Part shown: positions 14,314-29,366 of the stretch, in pieces
Layout: the number at the start of each line of letters is the position of its first letter
Numbering within the stretch: the stretch's first letter is position 1
Source: Steroidobacteraceae bacterium
GTDB taxonomy: Bacteria; Pseudomonadota; Gammaproteobacteria; Steroidobacterales; Steroidobacteraceae
Assembly (NCBI GenBank): GCA_049584935.1
Contig: JBAUYT010000090.1
Span: 147 to 64,146, forward strand
Length of the DNA: 64,000 nucleotides
Direction: 5' to 3'
Made by a program: the position numbers and the translations under genes
The notes under the pieces: model-generated
The model's database searches: none
Seen by the model: the letters and a program-made list of their open reading frames with translations, nothing else
Told to the model about the DNA's origin: nothing

Positions 14314-14360
14314 GGCTACAGTTTCCTCCCTCGGGAATATTAGTCGCAGATCAGTTTCTA

Positions 14361-14372
14361 TGTAACGTTACA
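14361..14372. promoter_or_regulatory. Class-A operator candidate, perfect palindrome TGTAACGTTACA
   Basis: Lies 48 bp upstream of the TonB-receptor start, in the divergent control region 14314..14660. Confidence 0.6.
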
Positions 14373-14454
14373 AGTGACTTGCAAGCAGTGCGGCGGAGAA
14401 AAATAACAACAGCTGTTCGGAATCTTGACGCTTCTACGCGCTTCTTCTAGCACT

Positions 14455-14466
14455 TGTAACGTAACA
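14455..14466. promoter_or_regulatory. Class-A operator candidate TGTAACGTAACA (1 mismatch)
   Basis: Second copy in the same divergent intergenic region. Confidence 0.5.
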
Positions 14467-14495
14467 TCTTTGAACTGTCAACGGTCCGATGCGGC

Positions 14496-14521
14496 AATCG
14501 AGCCGGTGGGCCGGCTCGATT
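14496..14521. repeat. Perfect 11-bp inverted repeat AATCGAGCCGG-tggg-CCGGCTCGATT
   Basis: Read directly from the sequence. It lies between class-A operators 2 and 3 and has no flanking T/U tract. Confidence 0.5.
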
Positions 14522-14592
14522 GATGCGTGCGCGCAACGACCCGCGCGCCGCGCGCCTTGGTCTGCTGCAGGTTGCGACCCGGCCAGCCGTAA

Positions 14593-14604
14593 TGTAACGT
14601 TACA
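14593..14604. promoter_or_regulatory. Class-A operator candidate, perfect palindrome TGTAACGTTACA
   Basis: Lies 57 bp upstream of the aminotransferase ATG at 14661. Confidence 0.6.
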
Positions 14605-14660
14605 CCACCCGGGCTCGAGAACAATATGGCGTGTACGCCCGGACGCAGGGTGGTCGAAAC

Positions 14661-16007
14661 ATGGTCGAAATCGTGAGCGGCAAGCTGGCCTCCCTGCTGG
14701 CGCATAACGGCGCCTATATTCCCGGGGGGATCAGTTCGACCAACCGCATCATTGACCCGCCCATCGCCTTCGTCAAAGCGCAGGGCGCTTATCTGTGGGA
14801 CATCGACGGCAAGCGCTACATCGACTATCACGCGGCCTTTGCGCCGCACTTTCTCGGCCACAACTTCGGCCCCATCAACGATGCGGTCATCAACGTGCTG
14901 CGCAGCGGCGAGAGCCTCTACGGGGCGGGTCCCACCGTACTGGAAGGGCGGCTGGCGGAGTTGCTTTGCAAGAACGTGCCGGCCGTCGAGAAACTCTGCC
15001 TGTTGAACACCGGCAGCGAGGCCACGGCGTTGGCAATACGCCTGAGCCGTGCAGTCACGCAACGCCAGCACTTCATCGTGGTACAGGGCGGCTACAACGG
15101 TAATCACGATGAGCTGGCGTGCAATGTCTTCAATACGCTGGCGGAAATCGGACCGCGGGTCTCGCCGGGCGAATACCCGCTCAAGCCCTCGGGTGCCGGC
15201 ACTACCCTGACCAGTACCCGCTTCGTGCATCCGATCAACTTCAATGATCTCGAATCGGTTCGCTACCTCTGCCGTCGGTTCCCGATTGCGGCAATGATCA
15301 CCGAACCGGTGCTGCAGAATGTCGGCGTGGTGCGGCCGCGGGACGGTTATCTGCAGGGCCTGCGAAAGCTGGCCGATGAGTTGGGGTTCCTGCTCATTTT
15401 CGACGAGGTCAAGACCGGCTTTCGCCACGCCCTGGGCGGCTATAGCGAAGTCTCAGGGGTGCTCCCGGATCTGGTCACCTACGGCAAGGCGGTCGCCAAT
15501 GGCTTTCCAATGGCGATCATGGGCGGCAAGCGGCAGTACATGGACTACGTGATGCACCCGGACCCTGCCAAGCGCCCGCTGGTGGCGGGAACCTACAATG
15601 GACATCCGGTGGCGGTGGCGGCCGCCATAGCCACGATCGAATACCTGTTGGCGAATCGAACCGCGGTGTATGAGAACAGCGAGAGGCTGGGCCAGCAAAT
15701 GGAAGCCGGGTTGCGGCGCATATTTGCGGCGCACGGCATTTCGGCAAGCGTCGCGCGCCAGGGCTCGGCCTTCTCCTACTACCTGATGCCCGAGGCCCCG
15801 GTCGACTTCCACGATATTCTGGAACATCATGACTTTGAGCGCGATGTCGCTCTGCGCCGCGCACTCAACGAGCAGGGTGTATTTTTTGTGCCCATCGCTA
15901 CCAAGCAGTGCTCGATTTCGGCCGCACATACGGCGGACGACATCCAGTTTACCCTGCAGCAAGTCGAGCGAGCCGTTGCCAGCGTCTGGGCCAAGGCGCG
16001 TAACTGA
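14661..16007 (+). CDS. Class-III PLP aminotransferase (glutamate-1-semialdehyde aminomutase-like)
   Basis: Contains IPGGISSTNR (compare PGGVNSPVR) and the LIFDEVKTGFR block, plus TYGKAVANGFP with the PLP lysine. ATG 14661 gives a family-typical N-terminus. Confidence 0.85.
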   Translation: MVEIVSGKLASLLAHNGAYIPGGISSTNRIIDPPIAFVKAQGAYLWDIDGKRYIDYHAAFAPHFLGHNFGPINDAVINVLRSGESLYGAGPTVLEGRLAELLCKNVPAVEKLCLLNTGSEATALAIRLSRAVTQRQHFIVVQGGYNGNHDELACNVFNTLAEIGPRVSPGEYPLKPSGAGTTLTSTRFVHPINFNDLESVRYLCRRFPIAAMITEPVLQNVGVVRPRDGYLQGLRKLADELGFLLIFDEVKTGFRHALGGYSEVSGVLPDLVTYGKAVANGFPMAIMGGKRQYMDYVMHPDPAKRPLVAGTYNGHPVAVAAAIATIEYLLANRTAVYENSERLGQQMEAGLRRIFAAHGISASVARQGSAFSYYLMPEAPVDFHDILEHHDFERDVALRRALNEQGVFFVPIATKQCSISAAHTADDIQFTLQQVERAVASVWAKARN

Positions 16008-16014
16008 GCGCAGC

Positions 16015-16926
16015 TTGAATGCTCTCAAGCGGATATTTCTGAGACATGGGCCGATCACGGTTGGGCTCGCTCCGGAATTCGGGGCGCTCACCCGGTTCGA
16101 CGTGCAGGTGGGGGATACCCTGGTCGATGTGTTGCGGCCGGCCATCGATCGACCGCTCGCGGGGCCCTGGGCACTGGGGGCATCGTGCTTTCCACTGACG
16201 CCCTATGGCGGTCGCTTGCGCAATGGCCGCTTCCGCTTCGAGGGCCGCGAGCTGACCTATCCTCTCAATGCATTGCCGGAGAAGCACTCCTCGCACGGTG
16301 ATGGCTGGACTCGCCCGTGGGTTTTGACGCAGCTGGATCGTCGCAGCGCCACCATGACGCTCTCGTACGATCCGCAGGCGCCCCTGAAGTATGCATGCAC
16401 GCAGACGGTGAGCGTCGACCCGACGCAGGTAAACGTCGCCATGGTGCTCGGCAATCTCGACTCGCAGCGCATCCCGGTGGGGGTTGGACTTCATCCCTAC
16501 TTCGCTAACCGCGTCGATGCCGTCCTGGCAGCCGAGCTTCCGACGCAATGGGGCTGGGATGATGAGTTGATGCCGCTCGAGCGCGGCCCGAACCCGGACG
16601 CCGACGGCTTCCGCCGCGGTAAGGCGGTGATGGATCTGCCCGTGGCGGCCGAATTCGACGGCTGGGACGGCCAGGCCCGTATCCAATGGCCGGCACGGGG
16701 CCTCAGCATCCAGCTGACGACCGCACCGCGCATGCAGCACGCGGTTCTGTGGGTTCCGTCAGGGAAGGATTTCTTCTGCTTCGAGCCCACCAGCCACGCG
16801 ACCGATGGCCTCAATGCCCGCTCCGGCCATCCGGCCGGCGAGCATTTCGTCGTGCTCGAGCCCGGCCAGGTGTTCGAGCAGCGCATCACGTTCTCCGTGG
16901 TGCCGAGCGCTGGACCCCGGCAATGA
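16015..16926 (+). CDS. Aldose 1-epimerase family protein
   Basis: Blocks HGDGW, GLHPYF and FCFEPTSH are typical of aldose epimerase/mutarotase-like proteins. The only start-like codon after the upstream stop is TTG 16015, so the start is uncertain. Confidence 0.7.
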   Translation: MNALKRIFLRHGPITVGLAPEFGALTRFDVQVGDTLVDVLRPAIDRPLAGPWALGASCFPLTPYGGRLRNGRFRFEGRELTYPLNALPEKHSSHGDGWTRPWVLTQLDRRSATMTLSYDPQAPLKYACTQTVSVDPTQVNVAMVLGNLDSQRIPVGVGLHPYFANRVDAVLAAELPTQWGWDDELMPLERGPNPDADGFRRGKAVMDLPVAAEFDGWDGQARIQWPARGLSIQLTTAPRMQHAVLWVPSGKDFFCFEPTSHATDGLNARSGHPAGEHFVVLEPGQVFEQRITFSVVPSAGPRQ

Positions 16927-17864
16927 CATCCAGCGAGGCGATTGAGCTGCGCATCGACTGCCGCAATGAATTGGGCGAAACGCCGCTCTGGTGTGCCGAG
17001 GCATCGACCCTCTACTGGATCGACGTCACCGCACCCGGCCGCGTGTTCTTTTGGAACACAGGCACCGACGAGGTCGATTTTTGGGATTTCCCCGAACTCG
17101 TGACCGGCATCGACCTTACGGATGATGGCGGCCTGCTGGTACGCGGCACCAACGACATCATTCGTTTTGATCTCGTCACGCGCCGGCAGCAACGGCTGTT
17201 TACGCTGCCCGACGTCTGCGGCTTGAGCCGATTCAATGACGGACACTGTGATCGCGCAGGCCGGCTCTGGGTCGGTACCATGTCCAATAATTTGCACCCT
17301 GGCGCTACGGGCATCGCCGCCTCCGCTGGGCAGATCTGGTGCATCGGCGATGGCAGGGCGAGCTCGATCGATGCGCACTTGGGCTGTCCGAATGCAATCT
17401 GCTGGAGCCCCGACTACCGCACCTTCTATATCGCCGATTCCGCCAACGGCTGGCTCTATGCTCACCGGTTCGATGACGACACCGGCACGCTCATGCAGCG
17501 TCGACCCTTCTTCAGCAGCAGCACGCTCGGCATACCGGATGGGGCGGCCGTGGACCAGGAAGGCTACCTCTGGAATGCGCGCTGGGACGCGGGCATGCTG
17601 ATCCGCATCAGTCCGGCCGGGCGCCTGGATCGCAGCGTGCGCCTGCCGGTTTCACGGCCCACGGCCTGCTGCTTCGGTGATGATGATTTGCGGACGCTGT
17701 ACATCACCACGGCCCGTTACGGCCTGACGCCCGAGCAACTGGCGACGGAGCCCCTCTCCGGTGGCGTGTTTTCACTGCGCGTCGATATCGCCGGTCTGCC
17801 GCTGCCGGCTTTCCGAGCCTCTGCCGCTCCGATTCAACACTATTACGGTGCTGCCCTGCCATGA
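16923..17864 (+). CDS. SMP-30/gluconolactonase/LRE family protein (sugar lactonase-like)
   Basis: Contains NELGETPLW...[19 protein letters not shown] and PNAICWSPD, then the [16 protein letters not shown] propeller repeats. ATGA overlap with the upstream gene. Confidence 0.85.
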
Positions 17865-19039
17865 AGATAACCGCCATTACGCCACTGATCTGTCACGCGC
17901 GCATGCGCAACTGGATCTTCGTCAAGGTCGAGACCGACCAGCCTGGCCTGTTCGGCTGGGGCGAGGCCACGCTCGAGTGGCATACCCGCGCGGTCGTCGG
18001 CGCACTCGAAGATCTGGCCACGCTGCTGATTGGCGAGGATCCGCGACGGATCGAACACCTCTGGCAGATGATGTTCCGCCAGCACTTCTGGCACGGCTCC
18101 GGCATCGTCCGCTCCACCGCCATCTCGGGCATTGATATCGCCCTGTGGGATATCGCCGGGAAGCTCCTGAACGTGCCCTGTCACCGTCTCTGGGGCGGTC
18201 GCGTACGCGACTACATTCGTCTCTACTGTCATCTCGGCGGCGGACGCATGGAGGCCTTCTATGAAACCGCTGCGGAGGACGCAGAGCGCTTCGCGGACCT
18301 GGCCCGCCAGGCGGTTGCCAACGGCTATTCGGCATTCAAATCGATGGCCGTGCCGCCCACCAGTGTGCTGGAAGGGCTGGGGCCTGTTCGAGCGGCCGAG
18401 CAGGCCGTGGCCAAAATGCGCGAAGCGGTTGGGCCACAGATCGACATCATGGTGGATTGTCACGCCCGCCCCTCGCCGACCATGGGCCTGCAGTTCGCCA
18501 AGGCACTGGAGCCCTATCGGCTCTACTTTCTCGAGGAACCCTGCTGGCCGGAATCCATCGTCGCGCTGGCCAGCATCAAGACCGCGGTCTCTACTCCGAT
18601 TGCCACCGGCGAGCGTCTGACGGCGCTGAATCAGTTCCGGGACCTGTTCGCGGCCCGCGGCTGCGATGTGGCGCAGCCCGACATCACGCATTGCGGCGGC
18701 CTGTCCTCGGCGCGGAAGATCGCGGCCCTGGCAGAGGCCTATCGTATCGCGCTGGCACCCCACAATCCGCAGGGACCCATCAGCACTGCGGCATCGTTCG
18801 AGTTTGGATTTTCGCAGCCCGATTACGCGATCTGCGAAACCGTCAGCGAGGATGTCCCGTGGCGCGCCGACGTGGTACGCGATTTCCATGCCATCGATCG
18901 CAAGACGCGCACGGTAACGGCGAGCGAGAAAGCCGGCCTGGGCGTGGAGGTCAATGAAGCAGCCGTCGCCGAGCATCCGTTCCAGCAGGAGTTGCCGCAG
19001 CGGGTCTTCTATAAGGATGGCGCGGTGGGCGACTGGTGA
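17861..19039 (+). CDS. Enolase-superfamily dehydratase, D-galactonate dehydratase-like (MR/MLE-1)
   Basis: [41 protein letters not shown] closely follows the galactonate/mannonate dehydratase subgroup N-terminus. It also has the DIALWD, MVDCH, FLEEP and QPDITHCGG blocks. ATGA overlap with the lactonase gene. Confidence 0.85.
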
Positions 19040-19060
19040 GCGGCGCTCGACGGCGCTAGA

Positions 19061-19072
19061 GAAAACGTTTCC
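19061..19072. promoter_or_regulatory. Class-B LacI-type operator candidate GAAAACGTTTCC (1 mismatch to GGAAACGTTTCC)
   Basis: Lies in the 60-bp gap between the dehydratase stop and the P2 start, 28 bp upstream of ATG 19100. Confidence 0.5.
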
Positions 19073-19099
19073 ACTCTCGATCACTTGCAGGAGCGTCGC

Positions 19100-20506
19100 A
19101 TGGCCAGTCTCGATCCCCAGCAACTGTTTGCCGGCTTCGGCCGCTCCGACATCACGCCGGCGTGGAATTTTCCCAACGGCATGTGGATGGCGCAGAAACA
19201 CGCGCGCGGCAACGGCATTCATCGCCGCCTGTGTATCTCCTGCGTGGTGCTGGGGACAGAGGCGGACGCGGTGGCCCTGGTGAGCTACGACCTGGTACTG
19301 CTCTCCGTGCCGCAGGTGACTGCAATCCGCGAGGCCATTCGAGCCCGAACCGGCCTGCCCCTGGACCGCATCTGGCTGTATGTGACTCACAATCACGCCG
19401 GACCGATCACCCAGGATTTTTACGATCGCGAGGGCGCCGCGGAGGTGGCCGCCTATGTGGCGGCTCTGCCCGAGCGCAGTGCACAGGCGGCAGAGCAGGC
19501 CTGGCAGGGGCGGCGGGCGGCGCGTGCCCACAGCGGCATCGGAGAATGCCGCATCGGGGTCAATCGGGACCTCAATTACCGGGGTCGCATGATCACCGGG
19601 CCGAATCTCGCCGGCTTCGCCGATCCGGATGTCGGTGTGATCCGCCTGGATGGCATCGATGGCAGCCCCATCGCCGCCATCGTCACCTATGGATGCCATC
19701 CAACCTTCCTGGGCCCCGGGAATACCCTGATCAGCCCCGACTACCCAGGCGTGACGCGAGATGTATTTGAAGGCATCACCTCCGCCCCCTGCCTGTTCCT
19801 GCAGGCAGGAGCAGGCAATGTCGGGCCGTTGCGCGGCTTCCTCGCCGACATCACGGAGGTGGAACGATGCGGACACCTGCTGGCCTGCGCGGCGGCGCAG
19901 GCATACTTCGCGCTGCCGATGGAAGGATACCCGGCTACCATCGATCACGTGGTTGAATCAGGCGCTCCTCTGGGTATGGTGCGGGAGCAGCCTGCCTCGA
20001 CCGGGCACCAGGCCTTTCGCGCCATTGCCCGACAGGTTCCGTTGCCGACCGACAACCCCGGTCCCACGGTCTACGATTCGGTCGAGCAGGACATCGACAA
20101 CGCACGCGCTCGTGTCGAGCGCCTGAAGCGCGAGGGCGCGGCGGAACCGGACATCCAGCATGCAACGCAGCATCTGCTGCGTCATCGGCTGCGCGCCGAG
20201 CGCAAGCGCCTGTACGCAACGCCAGGGTTTCCCCTCGAGGTCGGTGCGTTATTGATCGGTAAGAGCTGCTTCATCAGCCTGGCGTGCGAGCCCTACGCGG
20301 AACTCGCCGTTGCCATCAAGCGCCGTTCACCCGCCGAAACAACCATCTTTGCCGGCTATGAGGGACCGGACGTCATTTATGTCGCGCCCGCCGAGTCCTA
20401 CCAGGAGCCACGGCCGATGGAGGTCTACAACTCGCCGTTCGGACCTCAGGCCGCCGAGCTGCTGGTCAACGCTGCCGTATCCATGCTGCATGAGCTGCAT
20501 CATTAG
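19100..20506 (+). CDS. Ceramidase_alk-like hydrolase paralog P2 (divergent copy)
   Basis: Blocks GRSDITPAWNFPNG, THNHAGP, TYGCHPTFLGPGNTLISPDY and LQAGAGNVGP are collinear with P1/P3/P4/P5 but much more diverged. ATG 19100 is preceded by CAGGAG. The TTG at 19085 is an unlikely start. Confidence 0.55.
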   Translation: MASLDPQQLFAGFGRSDITPAWNFPNGMWMAQKHARGNGIHRRLCISCVVLGTEADAVALVSYDLVLLSVPQVTAIREAIRARTGLPLDRIWLYVTHNHAGPITQDFYDREGAAEVAAYVAALPERSAQAAEQAWQGRRAARAHSGIGECRIGVNRDLNYRGRMITGPNLAGFADPDVGVIRLDGIDGSPIAAIVTYGCHPTFLGPGNTLISPDYPGVTRDVFEGITSAPCLFLQAGAGNVGPLRGFLADITEVERCGHLLACAAAQAYFALPMEGYPATIDHVVESGAPLGMVREQPASTGHQAFRAIARQVPLPTDNPGPTVYDSVEQDIDNARARVERLKREGAAEPDIQHATQHLLRHRLRAERKRLYATPGFPLEVGALLIGKSCFISLACEPYAELAVAIKRRSPAETTIFAGYEGPDVIYVAPAESYQEPRPMEVYNSPFGPQAAELLVNAAVSMLHELHH

Positions 20507-20574
20507 CGCCAGCGCGCGCCCCGCACTGCCGGCCTGCGGTTCATTGATTTCGTCGCAGGCGCATGGCAAAGTAT

Positions 20575-20586
20575 GGAAACGTTTCC
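20575..20586. promoter_or_regulatory. Class-B operator candidate, perfect palindrome GGAAACGTTTCC
   Basis: Lies in the 134-bp gap after P2, 55 bp upstream of ATG 20641. Confidence 0.6.
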
Positions 20587-20640
20587 CTTAAGCGCCGCTG
20601 CCGCCATCGGCAAGCAGCAACTATAAGTCCACCACTACCG

Positions 20641-21771
20641 ATGCCGGATGCCATTGATCGAATCGACGCCTGGGCGTGCAATGTGCCATTGCCCGAGCCG
20701 CTTGATTTCGGCACCTTCTCGGTGACCTCGCGGCGCTACGTCGCGCTGCGCGTGCGCACCACCGGCGGACTCGCCGCCGATGTGGTCGGGCACAGTCGCG
20801 GCTCGCCGATCGACGTGGCGATAGTGGACCTGCTGGGCCCCAAGTTCATCGGCACGGATCCCGGCGACATCCCCGCAAGAGTCGAGGACTTTCATCGGCT
20901 GACCATCGCGCTCGAACGAGACGGGGTGCTCGGTCGCGCCTGGTCGTTGCTCGAGCTTGCAATGCAGGGTCTGCGCGCTGCGGCGCAGGGGGTGCCGGTC
21001 TGGAGCCTGCTGGGCGGCAACGCGCGCGAGTTGCCCGTGCAACTGGTGGAGGGCTACGCGCTCGGCAACGAGAGCGATGAAAATTTTGCGAACCGGCTGA
21101 TCGCGCGCGCTCACGAGGGCTATGCCGCGCTCAAGGTCGAGGGTGCGCATTATCAGGATTGGAGAACGCTGGCACGGCGCCTCGAGCTGACGCGGCGCCA
21201 GGCACCTGACTGCCGCCTGGTGGTGGATTTTGCCTGGTCGTGGCGTACGGCGCGCGAACATGCCGATGCGCTGGCGGCGCTCGGTGAACTGGGCGTGGAC
21301 TGGATTGAGGACGCCTTTCCCTTGCACGCAGTCGATCAGTACGTGCTCGCTGGGACGCTCACGCGCGCTCCGATCGGCTGCGGTGATGAGGCCACGCGGG
21401 CGGCCGATCTGATGGCGCTGGTGGAGGCCGGCGCGCTGCAGGTCGTGCGGCTGGATGCTACCGCGCTCGGCGGGTTCTCAGCCGTGCTGCCCCTGACGCA
21501 AACGCTGGCACAGCGGCGGCGCCGCGTGTCCTTGCACGATTTCCCCGAAATTCACCAGCATGCGGCGCTCGCGGATACGGTGGTGGACCACATCGAAATG
21601 TTTCCTCGCGACCGGCCTTTCGACGTACGCCATCGTCTCACGCTACGGTCTGCGCACGAGCGTGTCGCACACGGCAAGCTGCTTCCGGAGAATGCAAGCG
21701 GTCTGGGCATCGTCCTGGATCTCGATCAGGTTGCGCGGCATTCCCTCCGGCACAGTCATGTGGGCCGTTGA
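20641..21771 (+). CDS. Enolase-superfamily (mandelate racemase/muconate lactonizing enzyme-like) protein, MR/MLE-2
   Basis: The N-terminal capping domain plus barrel blocks (ALKVEG, VVDFAWSW, WIEDAFP, VVRLD) fit the MR/MLE architecture. It is divergent from the other two copies. Confidence 0.7.
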   Translation: MPDAIDRIDAWACNVPLPEPLDFGTFSVTSRRYVALRVRTTGGLAADVVGHSRGSPIDVAIVDLLGPKFIGTDPGDIPARVEDFHRLTIALERDGVLGRAWSLLELAMQGLRAAAQGVPVWSLLGGNARELPVQLVEGYALGNESDENFANRLIARAHEGYAALKVEGAHYQDWRTLARRLELTRRQAPDCRLVVDFAWSWRTAREHADALAALGELGVDWIEDAFPLHAVDQYVLAGTLTRAPIGCGDEATRAADLMALVEAGALQVVRLDATALGGFSAVLPLTQTLAQRRRRVSLHDFPEIHQHAALADTVVDHIEMFPRDRPFDVRHRLTLRSAHERVAHGKLLPENASGLGIVLDLDQVARHSLRHSHVGR

Positions 21772-21787
21772 TTAGGAGAGCTTTCTA

Positions 21788-22582
21788 ATGGCGAAGCGAG
21801 TCGTTGTGATTACCGGGGGTGCGTCGGGCATCGGCTGGGCCGCCGCCGAGGCCTTCCTCGAGCGCGACTGGTCAGTGATCATTGCCGACCGCGAGATCGA
21901 GCGTCTTCATGAGCGCCGGGGGGATCGTGCCGCCGCCATGGAGACCGTCCTGATTGATGTCACTTCGCAGGAATCCGTCGAGCATGCCTTTGCAGAGGTA
22001 TCCGCACGGCATGACCGGCTCGACGCGCTGGTCAACAGCGCCGGAATCCAGCGGTGGACTTCGCTGGCACAGCTGGATTGGCAGGCCTGGAATTCGGTGC
22101 AGGATGTCAATCTCAACGGTACTCTTCGCTGCCTGCAGGCCGCCGGTGCGCGGATGATCCCGCAGGGTCACGGCGCCATCGTCAACCTTTCCTCGGTAGC
22201 CGGCGTTCGCGGTGTACCGAACCGCACACCCTACGCGGCCTCGAAGGCCGGAGTCGAGGCGGTCACGCGCAGTGCCGCCGTGGAATGGGCGACGGCGGGG
22301 ATTCGCGTCAATGCGGTGGCTCCCGGCTATGTGGAATCCGAGCTGGTGCAGGAGTACGTCAAGACCGGACGGCTGGCGCTCGAACCGATTCTCAACAGAA
22401 TTCCGATGCGTCGGATGGCAAGGCCTCAGGAGATCGCCGATCTGATCTGCTATCTGTGCTCGGAGCAATCCTCGTACATCACCGGACAGGTAATCGCGGT
22501 GGACGGCGGCTTTCTCGCCGACTACGGAGTGCCCGCAGCGGCACCGAGCGTCCCCCAGGCGAGTAACACCCCAACCAAGTGA
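21788..22582 (+). CDS. Short-chain dehydrogenase/reductase (SDR)
   Basis: Contains ITGGASGIGWA, NSAG and YAASKAGV. Confidence 0.9.
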   Translation: MAKRVVVITGGASGIGWAAAEAFLERDWSVIIADREIERLHERRGDRAAAMETVLIDVTSQESVEHAFAEVSARHDRLDALVNSAGIQRWTSLAQLDWQAWNSVQDVNLNGTLRCLQAAGARMIPQGHGAIVNLSSVAGVRGVPNRTPYAASKAGVEAVTRSAAVEWATAGIRVNAVAPGYVESELVQEYVKTGRLALEPILNRIPMRRMARPQEIADLICYLCSEQSSYITGQVIAVDGGFLADYGVPAAAPSVPQASNTPTK

Positions 22583-22604
22583 CCCAACAGATGGAATCGA
22601 CCCT

Positions 22605-23594
22605 ATGAACCCTCCAGACTCTGCGCGCGAACCGTTCTCAGGACTGCCGCCGGGGGATGAAAGCGCGCTGCTGCTTACGATGTGTGTGATCCGCGAATTC
22701 GAAGTGGAAGTCCAGAAGCTGTTCGCACAGGGATTGGTGCGCGCAACCACTCATCTCTACCAGGGACAGGAAGCGGTGGCGACCGGCGCCTGCGCTGCCC
22801 TCAAGAGTGGTGATTCGATGACCTGCACCTACCGCGGACACGGCGCCGTACTGGCCATGGGTGTGTCCTTGAGCCGTGCGCTCGGCGAGATCCTGGGGCG
22901 TGCCGGCGGCCTGTGCGGCGGCAAGGGAGGCTCGATGCATCTGACGGACGTGGCGCGCGGCGCCATGGGCTCCAATGCCATCGTCGGCGCGCACCTGCCG
23001 ATCGCCAACGGACTGGCCTTCGCGGCGCGTTACCGGCGCACGGATGCGGTCTCGCTCTGCTTCTTTGGCGACGGCGCCACCAACATCGGCGCCTTCCATG
23101 AATCGATGAATCTCGCCGGAATCTGGCGGCTACCCGTCATCTTTGTCTGTGAGAATAACCTCTACGGAGAGTACTCCCCCGTTCACACCACCACTCCGGT
23201 CGCCCGATTGTCCGACCGCGCCGCAAGCTATGGCATGCCCGGGATTCCGGTCGATGGTAACGATGTGCTGGCCGTACGCGAGGCCACCACGCAAGCGCTG
23301 CAGCGCGCGCGCAGCGGCGCCGGTCCCACCATGCTCGAAGCGCTGACTTACCGCTTCGTCGGACACTCGCGATCGGACCCGGCCGCGTACCGCCCGCCCG
23401 GGGAACTGGAGCATTGGTTGGCACGCGATCCGATCGCGCTCAGCGCCGAGCGCCTGCGCCAGACCGGGATGGCGGAAGCGACGATTACGGCGATTCGCGA
23501 CGAGGCCATACGGCGTGTGTCGGCGGCCTCGCAGGAAGCGCGCAAGTGGCCGCCGCCCTCGCCAGCAGCACTGCACACACGAGTCTACGCATGA
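22605..23594 (+). CDS. TPP-dependent 2-oxoacid (pyruvate/acetoin-type) dehydrogenase E1 alpha subunit
   Basis: Contains YRGHG, GKGGSMHL, and GDGATNIGAFHESMNLAGIWRLPVIFVCENNLYG (TPP-binding motif). Confidence 0.9.
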   Translation: MNPPDSAREPFSGLPPGDESALLLTMCVIREFEVEVQKLFAQGLVRATTHLYQGQEAVATGACAALKSGDSMTCTYRGHGAVLAMGVSLSRALGEILGRAGGLCGGKGGSMHLTDVARGAMGSNAIVGAHLPIANGLAFAARYRRTDAVSLCFFGDGATNIGAFHESMNLAGIWRLPVIFVCENNLYGEYSPVHTTTPVARLSDRAASYGMPGIPVDGNDVLAVREATTQALQRARSGAGPTMLEALTYRFVGHSRSDPAAYRPPGELEHWLARDPIALSAERLRQTGMAEATITAIRDEAIRRVSAASQEARKWPPPSPAALHTRVYA

Positions 23595-24574
23595 GTGAGC
23601 TCACTTATCGTCAGGCGATCAACCGGGCCCTCGACGCGGAACTCGCTGCCGATCCAGAGGTGTTCCTGATCGGCGAGGACATAGGCGCCGGGGGCGGCGT
23701 ATTCAAGGTGACCGATGGCTTGTTCGCAAAATACGGCCCCGAGCGCGTCTTCGATACACCCATTTCGGAACAGGCAATCGTCGGCTGTGCGCTGGGTGCG
23801 GCCATGCAGGGTCTCAGGCCTGTGGCGGAGATCATGTTTTCCGACTTCACGGCAGTGTGCTTCGATCAGATCGCCAATCAAATCGCAAAATGTCGCTACA
23901 TGAGCGATGGCCAGATCGCCCTGCCCTTGACGATCCGCATGGCTACCGGTGCCGGCAGCGGTTTCGGCGCCCAGCATTCCCAGTCGGCCGAGCAATGGTT
24001 ACTGAACGTGCCCGGCCTCAAGATTGTCGTGCCTTCGACCCCGTCGGATGCGTATTGGATGCTGCGTGCGGCCATTCGCGATCCTGATCCCGTGCTCTAC
24101 TTCGAACACAAGGCGCTCTACGGAAAAAAAGGCGAGATCGTCGAGCACGAGTCGACGCCGCCACTCGGATCGGTGAATGTCCTGAAACCGGGCACCGATC
24201 TCACCATTGTCGCCAGTCAACTCATGCTGCACTACGCGCTGGAGGCAGCCAAGGGCCTCGCCACCAGCGGCATCTCGGCGGAGCTGCTCGACGCAAGAGT
24301 GCTGCGACCGCTCGATCTCGCCACAATCCGCGCCAGCGTGCTACGCACGGGGCGGCTGTTGATGGTTCAGGAGGCCCCGTCACTCGGCAGCTGGGGTGCC
24401 TCGGTCATCGCTGCGCTCGCAGCAGAATCGCCGGCGCCCTGGCGACAACCCGTTGTTCTATTGGGTGGCGCGGACACGCCGATCCCCTACGCGGCCGATC
24501 TCGAAGCAGCCTATCTGCCGAGCGTTCAGCGCATAACCGATGCCGCCCAAAACCTGATGCACGCTTCCGCCTGA
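23591..24574 (+). CDS. 2-oxoacid dehydrogenase E1 beta subunit
   Basis: MSELTYRQAINRALDAELAADPEVFLIGEDIG... is the canonical E1-beta N-terminus. ATGA overlap with E1 alpha. Confidence 0.9.
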   Translation: MSELTYRQAINRALDAELAADPEVFLIGEDIGAGGGVFKVTDGLFAKYGPERVFDTPISEQAIVGCALGAAMQGLRPVAEIMFSDFTAVCFDQIANQIAKCRYMSDGQIALPLTIRMATGAGSGFGAQHSQSAEQWLLNVPGLKIVVPSTPSDAYWMLRAAIRDPDPVLYFEHKALYGKKGEIVEHESTPPLGSVNVLKPGTDLTIVASQLMLHYALEAAKGLATSGISAELLDARVLRPLDLATIRASVLRTGRLLMVQEAPSLGSWGASVIAALAAESPAPWRQPVVLLGGADTPIPYAADLEAAYLPSVQRITDAAQNLMHASA

Positions 24575-24584
24575 GGGTGAACCC

Positions 24585-25751
24585 ATGACTAACCAGCGTT
24601 CGGCAACCGTTGCGATTTCCTCCCCATCCGACGCAGCGGGCATGCGGATCGAGTCGATCGACATTACCGCCATTCGTGTTCCGCTAAAGCGGATCTATCG
24701 CGGCAGCTATTACCAAATGTCACACCGCTCGACGCTGCTGTGCCGGGTCACTACGCAAAGTGGCATCGTCGGCGAAGCCTGGGCCGGCGATGAGGATGCC
24801 GCACTGCTGGAAATTGCGGCGATCGTGCAGCAGGAAATTGCGCCCAAGCTGCTGGGACGCGACGGCTCGCAGCTGGAAACCTGCTGGCAGGCCGCGCGGC
24901 CGGCCACCTTCAATATCCTGCGCGACCGTCGGCTCGGTCTGGTGGCCTGTGCCTGCGTCGATACGGCGCTCTGGGATGCGCTCGGTAAATCGGCCGGACT
25001 GCCGCTGTGGAAGCTGTGGGGTGGCTTCAGGAACGCCCTGCCGATGATCGCCATAGGAGGCTACTACGATGACATCCCCATTGCGGATGAGATGGAACAG
25101 CTGCGCAAGCTCGGCCTTGCCGGCATAAAATTTAAAGTTGGCGGTCGTTCGCCTGCCGAAGACGCGGCACGCGTACTGGCGGCGCGCCGCGCCGCGGGGG
25201 CCGATTTCGTGATCTGCGTCGATGCCAATCAGGGCTACAGCTACCGCGAAGCGCGCGAATTCGTACATCTCTCGACCGAGGCGGACATCTACTGGTTCGA
25301 GGAGCCGTGCCATTGGGACAACGACAAGATTCATATGCGCGATCTGCGTGCCACAACCGGAATACGCGTATGCGCGGGCCAGTCGGAATTTTCGGCGACG
25401 GCCTGTCGTGAGCTGATGTCGATCGGCGCCATCGATGTGTGCAACTTCGATGCCTCCTGGTCCGGCGGCCCGACCGAGTGGCGCCGGGCCGCCGCTGCTT
25501 CCATGACCTTTGGCATCCAGATGGGACATCACGAGGAACCGCAGGTCGCTTCGCATCTGCTCTGTTCAATCCCCAACGGCACCTTCGTCGAATGCTTCCA
25601 TCCAGACCGGGACCCCATCTGGTGGAATCTGGTGGCAAACCGGCCGAAGTTGGTCAACGGCATGCTTACACTGCCCAGCGGGCCTGGACTCGGCTGGGAA
25701 ATCGATCGCGACTACGTGGCTCGCTACCGCGTGCCGATGAGCGGCGACTGA
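24585..25751 (+). CDS. Enolase-superfamily (MR/MLE-like) protein, MR/MLE-3
   Basis: Contains DTALWDALGK, GIKFKVGG, VDANQGY, WFEEP and IDVCNFD (metal-ligand-bearing barrel strands). Confidence 0.8.
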   Translation: MTNQRSATVAISSPSDAAGMRIESIDITAIRVPLKRIYRGSYYQMSHRSTLLCRVTTQSGIVGEAWAGDEDAALLEIAAIVQQEIAPKLLGRDGSQLETCWQAARPATFNILRDRRLGLVACACVDTALWDALGKSAGLPLWKLWGGFRNALPMIAIGGYYDDIPIADEMEQLRKLGLAGIKFKVGGRSPAEDAARVLAARRAAGADFVICVDANQGYSYREAREFVHLSTEADIYWFEEPCHWDNDKIHMRDLRATTGIRVCAGQSEFSATACRELMSIGAIDVCNFDASWSGGPTEWRRAAAASMTFGIQMGHHEEPQVASHLLCSIPNGTFVECFHPDRDPIWWNLVANRPKLVNGMLTLPSGPGLGWEIDRDYVARYRVPMSGD

Positions 25752-25768
25752 TTCAGGAGCCTGCAACA

Positions 25769-26764
25769 GTGACCATCGTCATCGGCATGCCGACGCTGTC
25801 GGCATCCATGGATAGCGGTACGGTAACAAAGTGGCGAGTTGCCGTGGGCGAGCGCATCCGCGCCGGCCAAATCATCGCCGAGATCGAAACCGACAAGGCC
25901 GTTCTTGAATACGAATCGCCGGAATCTGGAACGGTGTTACGCCTGCTGGCCGAGGCAGGCGGCGGCGCGATAGCCGTGGGAGCACCGATCCTCGAGTTGG
26001 CTCAAGCTGAGGACGGCTCCGCCGCAATGCCATCGCAGTCTGCCGCCAAAGCGCCTCGCGCCGGCGATTCGGCCGCCGGCTCGCCGCAGATCGCGAAATT
26101 TTCGGCTGTGCGACGCCTCATTGCTGAACGGGTAGTCGAAGCGAAACGTACGATTCCGCACTTCTACGTGGCGCATGAGATGCGCATGGATGCGGCCATG
26201 GCAGCCATCGCTCGCCTGCGCCATGGTGGCACGGCAAAGTCGATTTCGATCAACACTCTGATTCTCAGCGCGCTCGCCAACACCCTGCGGTTGCATCCGG
26301 AACTGAATGTCGTATCCGCTGCGGACGGCACATTGGCGTTACCGTCGATCGATATTGGTGTTGCGGTCGCCACCGCGGAAGGGGTGTTCCTGCCCGTAAT
26401 CAGAAACGCTGCAACCCGATCGCTCACCGACATCGAGTCGGAAGTGGCGCGCCTGCGCAGCGCGGCCGAACGCCGCAGCCTGCAGCAGCATGAGTTCACT
26501 CAGACCGCGATCAGTCTCTCGAATCTGGGGATGCATGGCGTAGACGCCTTCGCCGCGATCATCAGTCCGCCGCAAGTCATGATGCTGGCGGTGGGCCGCG
26601 TCGCGCAGCGTCCCATAGTCGTGGATGGCGCAATCTCGATAGGCTTCACGATGCACTGCGTGCTTTCGTGCGACCACCGCGTCATCGATGGCGCGCAGGC
26701 TGCTGGATTTCTTGCGACGGTGCAGGACTCATTGAACGATAGCCAGTCGATCGCTGGTCGATGA
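25769..26764 (+). CDS. 2-oxoacid dehydrogenase E2 (dihydrolipoamide acyltransferase)
   Basis: A single lipoyl domain (IAEIETDKAVLEYESPESG) is followed by an Ala/Pro-rich linker. The catalytic domain ends in LSCDHRVIDGAQAAGFL. GTG 25769 follows CAGGAG. Confidence 0.88.
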   Translation: MTIVIGMPTLSASMDSGTVTKWRVAVGERIRAGQIIAEIETDKAVLEYESPESGTVLRLLAEAGGGAIAVGAPILELAQAEDGSAAMPSQSAAKAPRAGDSAAGSPQIAKFSAVRRLIAERVVEAKRTIPHFYVAHEMRMDAAMAAIARLRHGGTAKSISINTLILSALANTLRLHPELNVVSAADGTLALPSIDIGVAVATAEGVFLPVIRNAATRSLTDIESEVARLRSAAERRSLQQHEFTQTAISLSNLGMHGVDAFAAIISPPQVMMLAVGRVAQRPIVVDGAISIGFTMHCVLSCDHRVIDGAQAAGFLATVQDSLNDSQSIAGR

Positions 26765-27760
26765 ACCCGCTCGCGGACGGCCACAGCTTGGTCCGAAGCG
26801 AAAGCTCACAGGTAGAACCTTGGTGCGCGCCGGCGCTCCGCCAATCATCGACACGAGCATCTCGGCACTCTCACGTCCGAGCAGCAGCAGATCGCGCGTA
26901 ATGACTGCCTGTTTTGGCTGCAGCGCATCCATCAGTGGCACCTCGTCGCAGGTGACCAGCGACACATCCTGCGGGATGCGCAGCCCCAGGGTAGTGATGG
27001 CGCGCAATACGCCGATCAGAATCTGGTTACTGCCGGCAATGATCGCCGACGGCGCCGGGGTACTGGTCAGCAACTCGTGCGCGCTCGCCTCTCCATGCGC
27101 GTCAGCATAGGATCCCGGACGCGTGATGCCCGTAATCGACAGCTTGCCGCAGGCCTTTACGAACGCCTGGCTGCGCTCCCGTGTCGGCCGCGTAGCTGGC
27201 GTACCACCGATAAAGGCCAGGCGTTGGTGCCCGAGCTGCGCCAGCGCCGCAACCGCGTCGGTGAGGCCCACCTGGTGATCGAACAGAACGCGGCCGAAAT
27301 TCGCCAGTCCCGGCAGATCGCGATCGAGAATGACGCCCGGCGTCTTGATCGCGGCGAGTTGCGCGCGCGTCTCGCGATTGCTCTCATCGACCACGGAGAC
27401 GAGCATGCCATCCACACGGTGCCGTTGCAGTGTCTCCAGCTGCGAGACTTCGTTCTGGGCTCCTTCGGCGGAGTTGGCAATCAGCATCGCATAGCCATGA
27501 CTCTGCAGCGACTGCCCTGCCCCGGTGATGATCTGGGCAAAGGTGGGATTGGCGATGTTTGCAACCACGCAACCGATGGTCGAGGTAGTGCCGCGTCGCA
27601 GGCTGCGCGCAACCGCATCGGGAATGTAGCCGACGGCGCGCGCTGCCTCGAAGATGCGCGCCCGCGTCTCTGCGCTGACCGACTCACCGGGCGAGAACGC
27701 ACGTGAAACCGATGAAACCGCTACGCCCGCACGCTGGGCTACCGCGCGGATGCCCTTCAG
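26729..27760 (-). CDS. LacI-family transcriptional regulator (LacI-2), start codon unresolved
   Basis: The ORF track starts at GTG 27568, but the same frame is open up to 27868. It encodes KGIRAVAQRAGVAVSSVSRAFSPGESVSAETRARIFEAARAVGYIPDAVARSLRRG, a complete LacI HTH plus hinge. That stretch contains no ATG/GTG/TTG. CTG 27758..27760 would give MKGIRAV... and is used here as the nominal start. Confidence 0.7.
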   Translation of the reverse strand: MKGIRAVAQRAGVAVSSVSRAFSPGESVSAETRARIFEAARAVGYIPDAVARSLRRGTTSTIGCVVANIANPTFAQIITGAGQSLQSHGYAMLIANSAEGAQNEVSQLETLQRHRVDGMLVSVVDESNRETRAQLAAIKTPGVILDRDLPGLANFGRVLFDHQVGLTDAVAALAQLGHQRLAFIGGTPATRPTRERSQAFVKACGKLSITGITRPGSYADAHGEASAHELLTSTPAPSAIIAGSNQILIGVLRAITTLGLRIPQDVSLVTCDEVPLMDALQPKQAVITRDLLLLGRESAEMLVSMIGGAPARTKVLPVSFRFGPSCGRPRAGSSTSDRLAIVQ

Positions 27761-27889
27761 TTTGCGTACGCCGTTACGCCGCTTCGGCCGCTCAGGCCTG
27801 GTCTGGTTTGTGCTTCTGGCGATGATTCGTGCCTGGCGTATGATTGCGGTACCTGCAAGGCAGCCTATCTATGCCAATACAAGCGCCGC

Positions 27890-27911: not shown

Positions 27912-29366
27912 ATGCCGTGCTGCAGCGGTCAAGCGCACGAGGCCTGGGCGTGCTCGGGTGCTACCGTGACTTTGTCAAATACACGGCGCGCGCGGTTGGG
28001 ATTTCTGTCGGCGTTCTTTGGTTACTACGACGACGTGATGGGATCGGGATTCCGGCGCACTCAGGCACAGATCATTGCCGAAAATCGCGCCGTTCTCGAA
28101 AGCCATTTCGAGGTCATCGATTTTGGAATGATTTCCAGCCACGAGCAGGCCGGGAGTGTCGCACCAAAAATCGCCGCCGCGGGCATCGAGGTGCTGGTGT
28201 ATGCGCCGGCCATGGTCGCTCCGCCGGCGTGGATCGAGACCGCGCTGAGCGATCTTGCCTGTCCGATCCTGATCTGGAGCGCAACCCGGCAGGACGCTAT
28301 TCCCGAGGGCCTGGATCATCTGCAGGCGACGGTCCATACCTCGCTGGTCGGCGCAACGATGCTCTCGAATTGTCTGGTCAGGGGGCAAAAACGCTTCGCC
28401 GTCGTGGATGCGGTCCCAGGCAACCCTGGCGATGAGGCCAGACTCATGCGCTCCATCACGGCCGCGGTGGCCGCGCACAGACTCACCACCGCCGTGGCGC
28501 TTCGCATCGGCACTCCGATTGCCGGCTATCGCGACGTGGAATCCACCCCCGAGGAACTCGCGGCCATCGGCGTTCGTGAAGTGACCGTTCCAGTCGCAGA
28601 ACTCGAGGCGGCGTTTGCCCGCGTTGCCGCCGCCGATGTGGAGGCCGAGCTCGAGAGGCTGCAGGCGCGGTCCGGCTGGCACGCACCGCCAGCGGACGCT
28701 TCGGCCGCGAGCGCACGTCTCGCGCTGGCAATGCGCCGCCTGGCCGACGAGCATGGCGCCACCCTCGGCACCGTGAACTGCCACAGTGACTGGCTCCGGC
28801 AGAACCGGCAGATCGGCATCGTGGCCTGTCTGGGCGTATCTTGCCTGCACGAGAGCGGGATTCCGTTTTCCTGCACCGGGGATCTGCCCGCGGCCATGGC
28901 CGGATTGCTGGCGAAGACTTTGTCGGGGGCTGCCCTCTATTGCGAACTGTATGTACGCGAACCGGCGAGCGACGAATTCCTGGTGGCCGCCGGCGGCGAA
29001 GGCGATCCGGGCTGGGCCGATGGGCAGGTCACGGTGATGCCGAACCAATACTATCCGGGCCAGTGCGGCGCCGGACTGGGGGTGCGTTTCGCACTAAGGC
29101 ACGGTCCGGCAACGCTCATCGCGATGACACCAACCTCCGGGGCCTGGCGAATGATTTGGGCAGGCGGCGACATCACGGGGCGGTCCTTCTCACGGTTGGA
29201 CGGTCCGAATGGCATGTTCCGCTTCACCACCCAGCCGGGCCATCGTGCCGCCGAGGAGTGGATCGGCGCCGGGCCCACACATCATCCCGCGCTGGCGCGC
29301 GGCATTCTGGATCTGGAGCTGCCATTGGTCGCACGCCTCGCGAAGCTCGAGAGTATCCGCATCTGA
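27912..29366 (+). CDS. L-arabinose/L-fucose isomerase-like protein
   Basis: Collinear resemblance to AraA-type isomerases. Examples: LGFLSAFFGYYD against VWFVIGSQHLYG, VLVYAPAMVAPPAW, PILIWSAT, CTGDLPAAMAGLL, and WIGAGPTHHPALAR against WILAGGAHHTVFS. The start is either ATG 27912 or GTG 27966. The 27654 extension overlaps LacI-2 and is rejected. Confidence 0.55.
   Translation: MPCCSGQAHEAWACSGATVTLSNTRRARLGFLSAFFGYYDDVMGSGFRRTQAQIIAENRAVLESHFEVIDFGMISSHEQAGSVAPKIAAAGIEVLVYAPAMVAPPAWIETALSDLACPILIWSATRQDAIPEGLDHLQATVHTSLVGATMLSNCLVRGQKRFAVVDAVPGNPGDEARLMRSITAAVAAHRLTTAVALRIGTPIAGYRDVESTPEELAAIGVREVTVPVAELEAAFARVAAADVEAELERLQARSGWHAPPADASAASARLALAMRRLADEHGATLGTVNCHSDWLRQNRQIGIVACLGVSCLHESGIPFSCTGDLPAAMAGLLAKTLSGAALYCELYVREPASDEFLVAAGGEGDPGWADGQVTVMPNQYYPGQCGAGLGVRFALRHGPATLIAMTPTSGAWRMIWAGGDITGRSFSRLDGPNGMFRFTTQPGHRAAEEWIGAGPTHHPALARGILDLELPLVARLAKLESIRI

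Follow-up and report, generated by a model that had tools for sequence, protein, structure and literature searches.

Three operator-delimited units in a Steroidobacteraceae gene array: a tentative sugar-acid degradation island with a minimal E1/E2

Introduction

What would a bacterium degrade with sugar-acid enzymes, three enolase-superfamily proteins, an aminotransferase, a ceramidase-like protein, and the E1 and E2 components of a 2-oxoacid dehydrogenase, and do the genes for these proteins form one operon? This question is raised by contig JBAUYT010000090.1 of a Steroidobacteraceae bacterium (GenBank assembly GCA_049584935.1), of which positions 147 to 64,146, a stretch of 64,000 nucleotides hereafter called the window, were analyzed. 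Eleven intact genes on the + strand fill positions 14661-26764 of the window and are tightly packed, according to the listing of open reading frames (ORFs) and to Pfam and NCBIfam scans, which bear out the families, order, and spacing given in an initial annotation of this DNA. That annotation took the eleven genes to be a single operon. We favor a different model, in which they are three adjacent operator-delimited units rather than one simple operon and form one stretch of a catabolic island of ~40 kb, at about 5-47 kb of the window. The island probably encodes an undescribed degradation route, in which enolase-type sugar-acid enzymes are coupled to a stripped-down E1/E2 resembling pyruvate dehydrogenase (PDH). 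As a whole, mechanism included, the model is tentative, and we place it slightly below an even chance.

Organization of the array

Unit A comprises four genes: a class-III (HemL-like, GSA-aminomutase-like) aminotransferase (14661-16007, +; PF00202 at 1.2e-52), a protein of the aldose 1-epimerase (mutarotase) family (16015-16926, +; PF01263, 95.6 bits), a lactonase of the SMP-30/gluconolactonase (SGL) family (16923-17864, +; PF08450 at 2e-68), and the GalD-like enolase-superfamily enzyme MR/MLE-1 (MR1; 17861-19039, +; NF010624). The epimerase gene has a TTG start, and its orthologue in the related locus L002 is called with equal length. Unit B is the gene of P2, a ceramidase-fold protein (19100-20506, +) recognized by a sub-threshold PF04734 match and a fold match. 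Unit C runs from MR/MLE-2 (MR2; 20641-21771, +), a divergent enzyme of the mandelate-racemase subgroup, through a classical FabG-like short-chain dehydrogenase/reductase (SDR; 21788-22582, +; PF13561 at 3.4e-67), a PDH-like E1 alpha that binds thiamine diphosphate (ThDP) (22605-23594, +; PF00676 at 4e-80), E1 beta (23591-24574, +; PF02779 and PF02780), and a second mandelate-racemase-subgroup enzyme, MR/MLE-3 (MR3; 24585-25751, +), to a minimal E2 (25769-26764, +; PF00364 and PF00198 only). The junctions, in gene order, measure 7 nt, ATGA, ATGA, 60 nt, 134 nt, 16, 22, ATGA, 10, and 17; eight of the ten are thus an ATGA overlap or a gap of at most 22 nt, the exceptions being MR1-P2 (60 nt) and P2-MR2 (134 nt). 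A 701-aa antisense ORF (17843-19948, -) overlaps MR1 and P2. It is probably an artefact, because the + strand genes opposite it match their families strongly and are conserved as orthologues, and because at ~64% G+C long ORFs often arise on the antisense strand.

The units are set apart by two palindromes. The 347-nt divergent control region between a TonB-dependent receptor (TBDR) gene (-) and the aminotransferase gene (+) (14314..14660) holds three copies of the first, op1 (TGTAACGTTACA), at 14361, 14455, and 14593. Unit A lies behind op1 together with the divergent TBDR-ceramidase-SSF-SDR-LacI-1 operon. Six matches to op1 were observed in the window against 0.43 expected, and the other three copies (5252, 39798, and 40869) are intergenic; they are located upstream of an MFS gene, in the PhyH/NHL gap, and before hydantoinase A/B. 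The second palindrome, op2 (GGAAACGTTTCC), is perfect at 20575..20586, 54 nt upstream of MR2 and thus of unit C. Unit B lies behind the op2-type site GAAAACGTTTCC (19061..19072) in the MR1-P2 gap, with one mismatch to GGAAACGTTTCC. The statement of the initial annotation that the two long gaps bear operators therefore stands, as each holds a GGAAACGTTTCC-type palindrome. For op2, seven matches were observed in the window against 1.19 expected, counting a weaker one with two mismatches inside MR2 (21594). Further copies lie at 27890-27901, in the gap between LacI-2 and an isomerase-like gene, and at 32928, 33839, and 33958, around the start of an MFS gene and upstream of an AstE-like gene. Outside the array, op2 is thus also found at an MFS-ceramidase unit and before an AstE-ceramidase-M20 unit. 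An alternative start of MR2 at the ATG at 20563 was rejected; the operator would become coding, and the orthologues begin with MPDAIDR.

Relatives of the array (denoted here by locus numbers) were found only in soil-type metagenomes and metagenome-assembled genomes (MAGs). The array is kept gene for gene, at ~65-95% protein identity, in L002, L004, and L019, and partly in L016, L020, and L021, so the arrangement is not due to chance. The full gene order extends to L004 at about 65-80% identity, with an extra ceramidase-like gene inserted between MR1 and P2. The three op1 sites of the TBDR/aminotransferase gap keep their position in L002, L004, and L019. A perfect op2 is located just upstream of the MR2 orthologue in 12 loci, in which the upstream gene is P2, an MFS transporter, or a divergent MR1; the copy at 20575..20586 is the probable LacI-2 operator of unit C. 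The op2-type site before P2 is kept in L002 and L021 and was not found in L019 and L004.

In sister lineages (L023/L024 and L028, MR2 ~71% identical), the MR1 orthologue is found on the opposite strand, in an operon MR1-ceramidase-SSF-SDR-LacI-1 that faces MR2-SDR-E1alpha-E1beta-MR3 across one gap. In L024 and L028 the string Cer_a-SSF-SDR-LacI-1 known from the window is thereby headed by the MR1 orthologue, with op1/op2 in the gap opposite MR2; in the divergent gap of L028, op1 is the site nearer to MR1, and op2 is the one nearer to MR2, 22 nt before it. The aminotransferase, epimerase, lactonase, and P2 genes are absent from the MR1/MR2 junction of L023, L024, and L028 and are placed elsewhere. 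For instance, the L003/L028 contig carries a separate unit of epimerase, lactonase, and isomerase-like genes ~35 kb away, beside a TBDR gene. The MR1|P2|MR2 junctions are broken in L004, L023, L024, and L028, and the aminotransferase, epimerase, SGL, P2, and MR1 genes shift place among lineages. The initial annotation had proposed a search of genome neighborhoods for this co-occurrence: these five relocate, while the invariant block is MR2-SDR-E1alpha-E1beta-MR3-(E2 or lipoyl gene), followed by a convergent LacI-2 gene. This block was seen in L002, L004, L016, L019, L020, L023, and L028, and in L021 and L022 as far as the contig runs. The link that the initial annotation drew between enolase-type enzymes and E1/E2 is accordingly upheld in every locus long enough to show it.

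The same comparison bears on the reading of the array as one eleven-gene polycistronic operon, encoding a linear pathway for an amino or N-acyl sugar that ends in oxidative decarboxylation. The co-directional, short-gap layout of such an operon is present in the window, with only two gaps above 22 nt; a convincing terminator inside the array was not found; and the whole order is kept in L002, L004, and L019. On the other hand, a single operon would lack internal sites and keep its adjacency across lineages. Here, the long gaps carry op2 and the upstream region op1, so that two types of LacI operator, conserved in position among relatives, belong to the array; op2 before MR2 stays perfect even where the preceding gene is an MFS transporter or a divergent MR1; MR1 is on the other strand in the sister lineages, where four of its companions are off the junction; and L004 has its additional gene between MR1 and P2. 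We consider a single operon unlikely. The sole internal terminator-like site is a weak hairpin at 20525-20540. Rfam and tRNA scans of the window returned nothing, so the window holds no riboswitch.

LacI-family regulators

Two genes with LacI-type helix-turn-helix domains adjoin palindromes with a central CG, the predicted operators. LacI-1 (6544-7629, -) is the last gene of the leftward TBDR operon, and LacI-2 (26729..27787, 5' end approximate, -), which has LacI and Peripla_BP domains, is convergent with E2. The two proteins are 33% identical over the helix-turn-helix region, and two distantly related LacI-family repressors thus appear to control the island. Wherever a locus extends far enough, LacI-2 comes after the gene for E2 or for the lipoyl protein. 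As op2 is located in the upstream gap of LacI-2 itself, and as a LacI-1 orthologue accompanies op1-linked genes in L005, L024, and L028, we infer the pairing of LacI-2 with op2 and of LacI-1 with op1. The op2 site beside LacI-2 keeps its position in relatives down to ~65% identity, as do the op1 sites. The recurrence of op1 and op2 suggests two regulons spanning ~40 kb.

The start of LacI-2 deserves mention. In the window (27700-27800, -), no ATG, GTG, or TTG precedes the helix-turn-helix; in a codon comparison with L002 and L004, the ATG of the L002 orthologue reads AGG in the window, and the first standard start, a GTG at 27568, would yield a protein without the DNA-binding domain. This change could be a sequencing error, could reflect the use of a rare start codon, or could mean that the start codon has been lost, in which case the op2 units would be derepressed. 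At its other end LacI-2 (-) converges on E2 (+), and the two genes share their last 36 nt (26729-26764), so that a terminator has no space between them; the shared stretch measures 4 nt in L002 and 33 nt in L004.

The E1/E2 proteins

Both E1 subunits are closest to true PDH E1. E1 alpha scores 341 bits with TIGR03182, below the cut-off of 394, matches human PDH E1a at 4e-61, and carries the GDG...NN motif for ThDP. E1 beta scores 330 bits with NF006667 (PDH E1-beta subfamily), against a cut-off of 321. The E2 protein consists of a lipoyl domain (ETDKA, 25886), a linker of ~30 aa, and a catalytic domain (DHRVIDG, 26672). Thus, the ThDP-dependent alpha/beta E1 and the lipoyl and DHRxxDG motifs of a 2-oxoacid dehydrogenase are present. 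A peripheral-subunit-binding domain (PSBD) was found neither by PF02817 nor by a motif search of E2, and E3 was not found in the 64 kb: no Pyr_redox domain turned up in the large ORFs that were tested, and a six-frame search for the redox-disulfide motif was empty, in agreement with the initial annotation. E3 is commonly shared among complexes, so a missing E3 gene is ordinary. E2s without a recognizable binding domain have a precedent in mammalian E2o.

The PSBD-less architecture is a property of a whole clade. Among relatives taken from a protein search and checked for domains by PF02817, the 23 best E2 matches (at least 46% identity, 312-337 aa) share it, one fragment apart, and all relatives in this clade with a readable context belong to the unit C module. 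The more distant matches are canonical PDH E2s with PF02817, except P0352, a protein of 333 aa and 40% identity to E2 from an unrelated context. A further reduction is seen in L023, L028, and a third sample, in which the E2 gene is replaced by a gene for an 80-aa lipoyl protein that ends at the LacI-2 stop (7695-7937 in L023 and 11153-11395 in L028), with the rest of unit C intact. Since it was found in three independent samples, the 80-aa form cannot be put down to faulty assembly. What is less usual about the system is this free lipoyl form and the minimal E2, whose missing E1/E3-binding domain was overlooked by the initial annotation.

These forms raise the possibility that E1 and the lipoyl protein cleave the C-C bond next to the keto group of a deoxy-keto sugar, in the manner of acetoin dehydrogenase or transketolase; the lipoyl arm would merely accept the fragment, and the E2 catalytic domain would be optional. 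The retention of E1 alpha and beta with an 80-aa lipoyl protein devoid of the catalytic domain in the three independent samples fits such a reaction, as does the lack, in E2, of the domain that builds the classical complex. A MR2 homologue in Rhodococcus is, moreover, paired with a split transketolase and not with E1/E2. In the window lineage, however, the DHRVIDG motif and the CoA-transferase domain of E2 are intact and conserved, and the similarity of both E1 subunits to true PDH E1 also argues against it. A cleavage of this kind seems quite improbable to us, and transfer of the acyl group to CoA is kept in the model for the window lineage.

The three enolase-superfamily proteins

MR1 is the most readily classified of the three. 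It scores 318.6 bits with NF010624 (galactonate dehydratase), a small margin over the cut-off of 311, it matches PDB entry 3rr1 at 8e-66, and its residues D199-x-H201, E225, E251, D274, and H301 agree with the sequence definition of GalD. MR3 carries K182-F-K184 (the KxK motif), D213, E239, E268, D289, H315/316, and E336. It is ~65% identical (~1e-152) to 3no1, 4h83, and 3msy, which are uncharacterized structural-genomics entries, and it belongs to a large and well-conserved family (3597 relatives found) with varied contexts, in which identity is ~65% even in Conexibacter. In L008, for instance, the MR3-family gene lies beside sugar-type genes. A general link of MR3 to E1/E2, as its position between E1 beta and E2 might suggest, was rejected, since MR3-family genes elsewhere have other neighbors.

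MR2 is far more isolated, with a best PDB match of only 1e-18, and only 87 of 1.84 billion cluster representatives match it at E<=1e-30. K165, D196, E223, D249/E250, D272, H299, and E319 are invariant in 12 orthologues. At the KxK site MR2 reads K165-V-E167; in place of the second Lys, the orthologues have E or A at position 167. In both MR2 and MR3 the three carboxylate metal ligands (strands 3-5) are present, and H299/D272 of MR2 and H315-316/D289 of MR3 correspond to the His-Asp dyad on strands 7 and 6, with residue equivalence judged by motif spacing. The best-scoring NCBIfam models for both are those of talarate/galactarate and arabinonate dehydratases, with talarate/galactarate best in each case. 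Judged by these residues, all three proteins look catalytically intact. The initial annotation called three enolase-superfamily genes in one place unusual. All three are indeed present, but several such genes also occur together in the unrelated loci L008 and L009, which weakens the claim of rarity.

Outside the lineage, MR2 relatives adjoin ThDP or CoA enzymes. Among species-representative genomes, a close MR2 (62%) was found only in the MAG of an uncultured gammaproteobacterium. Its locus (L009, 295-12257) has the 62%-identical MR2, two more MR/MLE genes, an SDR, and an aldo-keto reductase, together with a family-III CoA-transferase, a MaoC-type hydratase, a GFO/IDH oxidoreductase, and a DMFA2-like amidase, and looks like a parallel design that would reach CoA thioesters without E1/E2. 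In the plasmid collection, which holds cultured strains, the closest homologue (42% identical) is found on a Rhodococcus qingshengii plasmid (L029; NZ_AP023173.1, 8087-13950). There, in an operon controlled by IclR, a split transketolase is encoded upstream of it, and an SSADH-like aldehyde dehydrogenase and an L-idonate-5-dehydrogenase-like protein are encoded downstream. Because of these neighbors, the two loci support a functional link of the MR2 product to ThDP/CoA chemistry.

P2 and its paralogues

P2 matches PF04734 at 27.3 bits, below the gathering score of 32.1. Its AlphaFold (AF2) model has a pLDDT of 93.8, and a Foldseek search of the PDB with this model returned only the neutral ceramidases 2zws, 2zxc, and 4wgk (E 3e-24 to 2e-21; 2zws at E 3e-24, TM 0.68) and no other fold. 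Alignment by phmmer to the Pseudomonas aeruginosa enzyme PaCD spans THxHxGP and CHPT...ISPD and holds H97, H99, and H204 of PaCD. In addition, an alignment of 57 sequences, all five window paralogues among them, shows no variation at P2 residues H97, H99, R156, H200, E397, and Y427 (reference residues of PaCD: H97, H204, E411, Y448, H99, and R160; E397 and Y427 of P2 are equated by inference). P2 has 468 aa, compared with ~650 for the known enzymes, lacks the C-terminal domain, and shows no visible signal peptide in its sequence. Given the motif alignment, the invariant active-site residues, and the fold match, P2 is predicted to be a cytoplasmic Zn amidase of neutral-ceramidase fold. The amidase-like nature suggested for P2 by the initial annotation thus gains a fold, with Zn and catalytic residues kept. 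The view of P2 as a degenerate, ceramidase-like remnant was rejected, as its active-site set is invariant.

The window holds five ceramidase-like paralogues in all (10283-11734, -; 19100-20506, +; 30329-31714, -; 35223-36620, +; and 44806-46245, +). The others are 24-28% identical to P2, share the invariant active-site set, and, as with P2, no signal peptide was found in any of the five. Each lies in a unit adjoining op1 or op2. The paralogue constantly linked to MR1, the SSF transporter, and an SDR is not P2 but Cer_a (10283-11734).

The wider island

The divergent partner operon of unit A (6544..14313, -) encodes the TBDR (11851-14313, -), the ceramidase-like Cer_a (10283-11734, -), an SSF symporter (8443-10176, -), an SDR (7645-8433, -) with PDB matches of the generic FabG type, and LacI-1. 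This SDR, and not the one in the array, is constantly linked to the GalD-like MR1, so that the dehydrogenase step, which the initial annotation had drawn from the array, may belong to the divergent operon. Divergent from LacI-2 is the gene for a putative sugar isomerase of arabinose-isomerase-C-like type (27912..29366, start approximate, +; weak PF11762). Its product weakly matches the model of the sulfoquinovose isomerase SftI (37 bits), and a PDB search with it gave no matches. The gene adjoins LacI-2 in L002, L004, L016, L019, and L020 and the epimerase and SGL genes in L003. The island also holds an AstE/AspA-type deacylase, an M20 peptidase, a PhyH dioxygenase, hydantoinase/oxoprolinase A and B, an Amidohydro_3 protein, and MFS and SSF transporters. 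Downstream of the island, at 49562-56267, are an ABC transporter (permease, ATPase, and two family-3 binding proteins), two genes of the CE4 polysaccharide-deacetylase family, and one MmgE/PrpD-family gene, which add to the amide/ester hydrolase content there.

With modules that are shuffled among lineages, it could be argued that unrelated catabolic modules have simply gathered next to one another where genes are dense. In every lineage examined, though, the same families are again found together, the MR1 and MR2 units share one gap in L024 and L028, and two shared operator types join units over ~40 kb. Mere juxtaposition is, in our view, very improbable.

The families of the upper half of a non-phosphorylative sugar oxidation module (mutarotase, dehydrogenase, lactonase, and dehydratase) are all in the window. 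The downstream step is not: no family of a kinase/aldolase, or of a second dehydratase and semialdehyde dehydrogenase, was found among the window ORFs scanned against Pfam, which agrees with the initial annotation as to the 2-keto-3-deoxy-acid kinase and aldolase.

Proposed pathway

In the proposed route, an N-acylated or amino sugar-type compound would be imported via the TBDR and then the SSF transporter, and a cytoplasmic ceramidase-fold Zn amidase would strip the acyl group. The sugar would be anomerized and oxidized to a lactone, which is hydrolyzed, and the GalD-like MR1 would dehydrate the acid to a 2-oxo-3-deoxy acid; the aminotransferase would remove or relocate the amino group. In unit C, MR2 and MR3, as enzymes of acid-sugar dehydratase/epimerase type, could channel acid sugar(s) to a 2-oxo acid, which the PDH-like E1 would decarboxylate onto the lipoyl arm, with the minimal E2 passing the acyl group to CoA. 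A 2-oxo-3-deoxy acid would thereby yield a 3-hydroxyacyl-CoA, and the FabG-like SDR could oxidize it to a 3-oxoacyl-CoA. The lipoyl group would be re-oxidized by a housekeeping E3 encoded elsewhere, presumably acting undocked, since E2 has no subunit-binding domain.

Confidence differs between the parts of this scheme. The overall model, comprising three units, an island with two repressors, and a sugar-acid route to acyl-CoA, is the one given above a probability somewhat short of one half; the gene families, intact catalytic motifs, operators with their conservation, and modular synteny are observed, and the substrate, order of reactions, and pairing of repressors with operators are proposed from them. 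A more specific claim is that the PDH-like E1, together with a minimal lipoyl carrier or PSBD-less E2, takes a 2-oxo-3-deoxy sugar acid directly to 3-hydroxyacyl-CoA by way of new enolase-superfamily dehydratases, replacing the kinase/aldolase or Weimberg steps, and is fed by new cytoplasmic ceramidase-fold amidases acting on N-acylated sugar-type compounds. In this full form the claim is doubtful.

Several observations count against the model. A scan of the array for sigma-70 promoters and terminators was not above shuffled background and gave no strong site inside, so read-through from unit A into B and C is possible and the units may still serve one pathway. Of the RNA runs searched, none holds the window sequence; the runs that do hold it are soil-metagenome DNA only. 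As two sister lineages have only the 80-aa lipoyl protein, CoA transfer by the product of the gene in the E2 position would not be universally required. A thiolase or another enzyme consuming 3-oxoacyl-CoA was not seen in the window, and the assignments of both SDRs are generic by PDB search (for the array SDR: FabG, acetoacetyl-CoA reductase, and sugar dehydrogenases). The MR3 homologue in Conexibacter adjoins beta-lactamase-family and D-aminopeptidase genes and a peptide ABC transporter, and the surrounding M20, AstE-like, Amidohydro_3, and hydantoinase genes would fit a non-sugar N-acyl substrate also.

These last points lead to a different substrate, namely an N-acyl amino acid, small peptide, or lactam. 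Amide hydrolases would free an amino acid, the MR proteins would racemize or epimerize it in the manner of N-succinylamino-acid racemases and dipeptide epimerases, the aminotransferase would convert it to a 2-oxo acid, and E1/E2 would oxidize the latter as in branched-chain catabolism. Aminotransferase followed by 2-oxoacid dehydrogenase is the classical logic of amino-acid catabolism, amide hydrolases are dense within both operator sets, and the Conexibacter neighborhood is of peptide type. The aminotransferase itself is below every NCBIfam equivalog cut-off, and its PDB matches are GSAM (best, 1e-67), followed by PctV-like, D-phenylglycine, and beta-Phe aminotransferases. Against an amino-acid substrate stand the LacI type of the regulators, the mutarotase, SMP-30 lactonase, and arabinose-isomerase-like protein in the cluster, and the score of MR1 above the NCBI galactonate-dehydratase cut-off. 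Moreover, MR2 and MR3 score best with talarate/galactarate and arabinonate dehydratase models rather than with racemase/epimerase models, and E1 is PDH-like and not BCKDH-like. Such a substrate is unlikely, and the sugar-acid route is retained as the working model.

If that model is true, it would provide a new exit from oxidative sugar-acid pathways, from 2-oxo-3-deoxy acid to acyl-CoA, and would assign functions to the MR2 subfamily and the large 3no1/4h83 family, both of them orphans within the enolase superfamily. It would also define a bacterial cytoplasmic branch of the neutral-ceramidase fold, and a 2-oxoacid dehydrogenase that works with a docking-less E2, or with a mere free lipoyl protein, would bear on the assembly and evolution of these complexes. 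The cluster also directs attention to compounds taken up via a TonB-dependent receptor in uncultured soil bacteria. Although its clade is narrow and uncultured, the cluster offers good leads to those in search of enzymes, and the minimal E2 is truly odd.

Comparison with known systems

The oxidative aldose pathways (De Ley-Doudoroff and Weimberg/Dahms) share with the island a mutarotase, an NAD(P)-dependent SDR-type dehydrogenase, an SMP-30 lactonase, and an enolase-superfamily aldonate dehydratase. In contrast to these pathways, no kinase/aldolase, KdxD-type second dehydratase, or semialdehyde dehydrogenase was found here; the island instead has E1/E2, two extra enolase-superfamily enzymes, an aminotransferase, and ceramidase-fold amidases. 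Among acid-sugar dehydratases (TalrD/GalrD, FucD, RhamD, and GalD), the three metal ligands and the His-Asp dyad are common ground with MR1 to MR3, as is the KxK motif with MR3, whereas MR2 has K-x-E/A and forms a very small subfamily and MR3 belongs to the uncharacterized 3no1/4h83 family.

PDH-type complexes with an alpha2beta2 E1 have in common with unit C the ThDP motif, an E1 beta that passes its cut-off, and the lipoyl-lysine and DHRxxDG motifs. They differ in that the E2 described here has no PSBD, the cluster has no E3, E1 alpha does not reach its equivalog cut-off, the genes of E1 beta and E2 are separated by an enolase-superfamily gene, and sister lineages have a free lipoyl protein. 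Acetoin dehydrogenase clusters (acoABC with or without acoL) likewise encode a catabolic, substrate-specific E1 alpha/beta and a lipoyl-bearing E2, and some of them are without an E3 of their own. On the other hand, the AcoC model, with a cut-off of 307 bits, scores 65.8 bits with this E2 and aligns to its lipoyl domain alone, and the context here is one of sugar-acid enzymes and not of acetoin/butanediol genes.

Neutral ceramidases (PaCD, 2zws; human NEUT, 4wgk) share with P2 the fold of the catalytic domain and its Zn-ligand and catalytic residues. Unlike them, P2 is a protein of ~470 aa with 13-18% identity and neither C-terminal domain nor signal peptide, and the five paralogues in the window lie in sugar/amide catabolic units. 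The substrate of P2 is probably not ceramide.

The oxidative catabolism of deoxyribose and deoxyribonate, reportedly described by Price et al. in 2019, is said to convert a deoxy sugar acid into CoA thioesters by beta-keto chemistry without an aldolase; its enzymes are reportedly wholly different, with no E1/E2 and no enolase-superfamily proteins. The literature searched contained no description of this enzyme combination or of a matching pathway, and nothing relevant on PSBD-less E2s, oxidative decarboxylation of keto-deoxy acids, the PDB codes, or PF04734/ceramidase homologues. Thus, while all of its parts come from known enzyme families, their combination is new relative to the literature searched.

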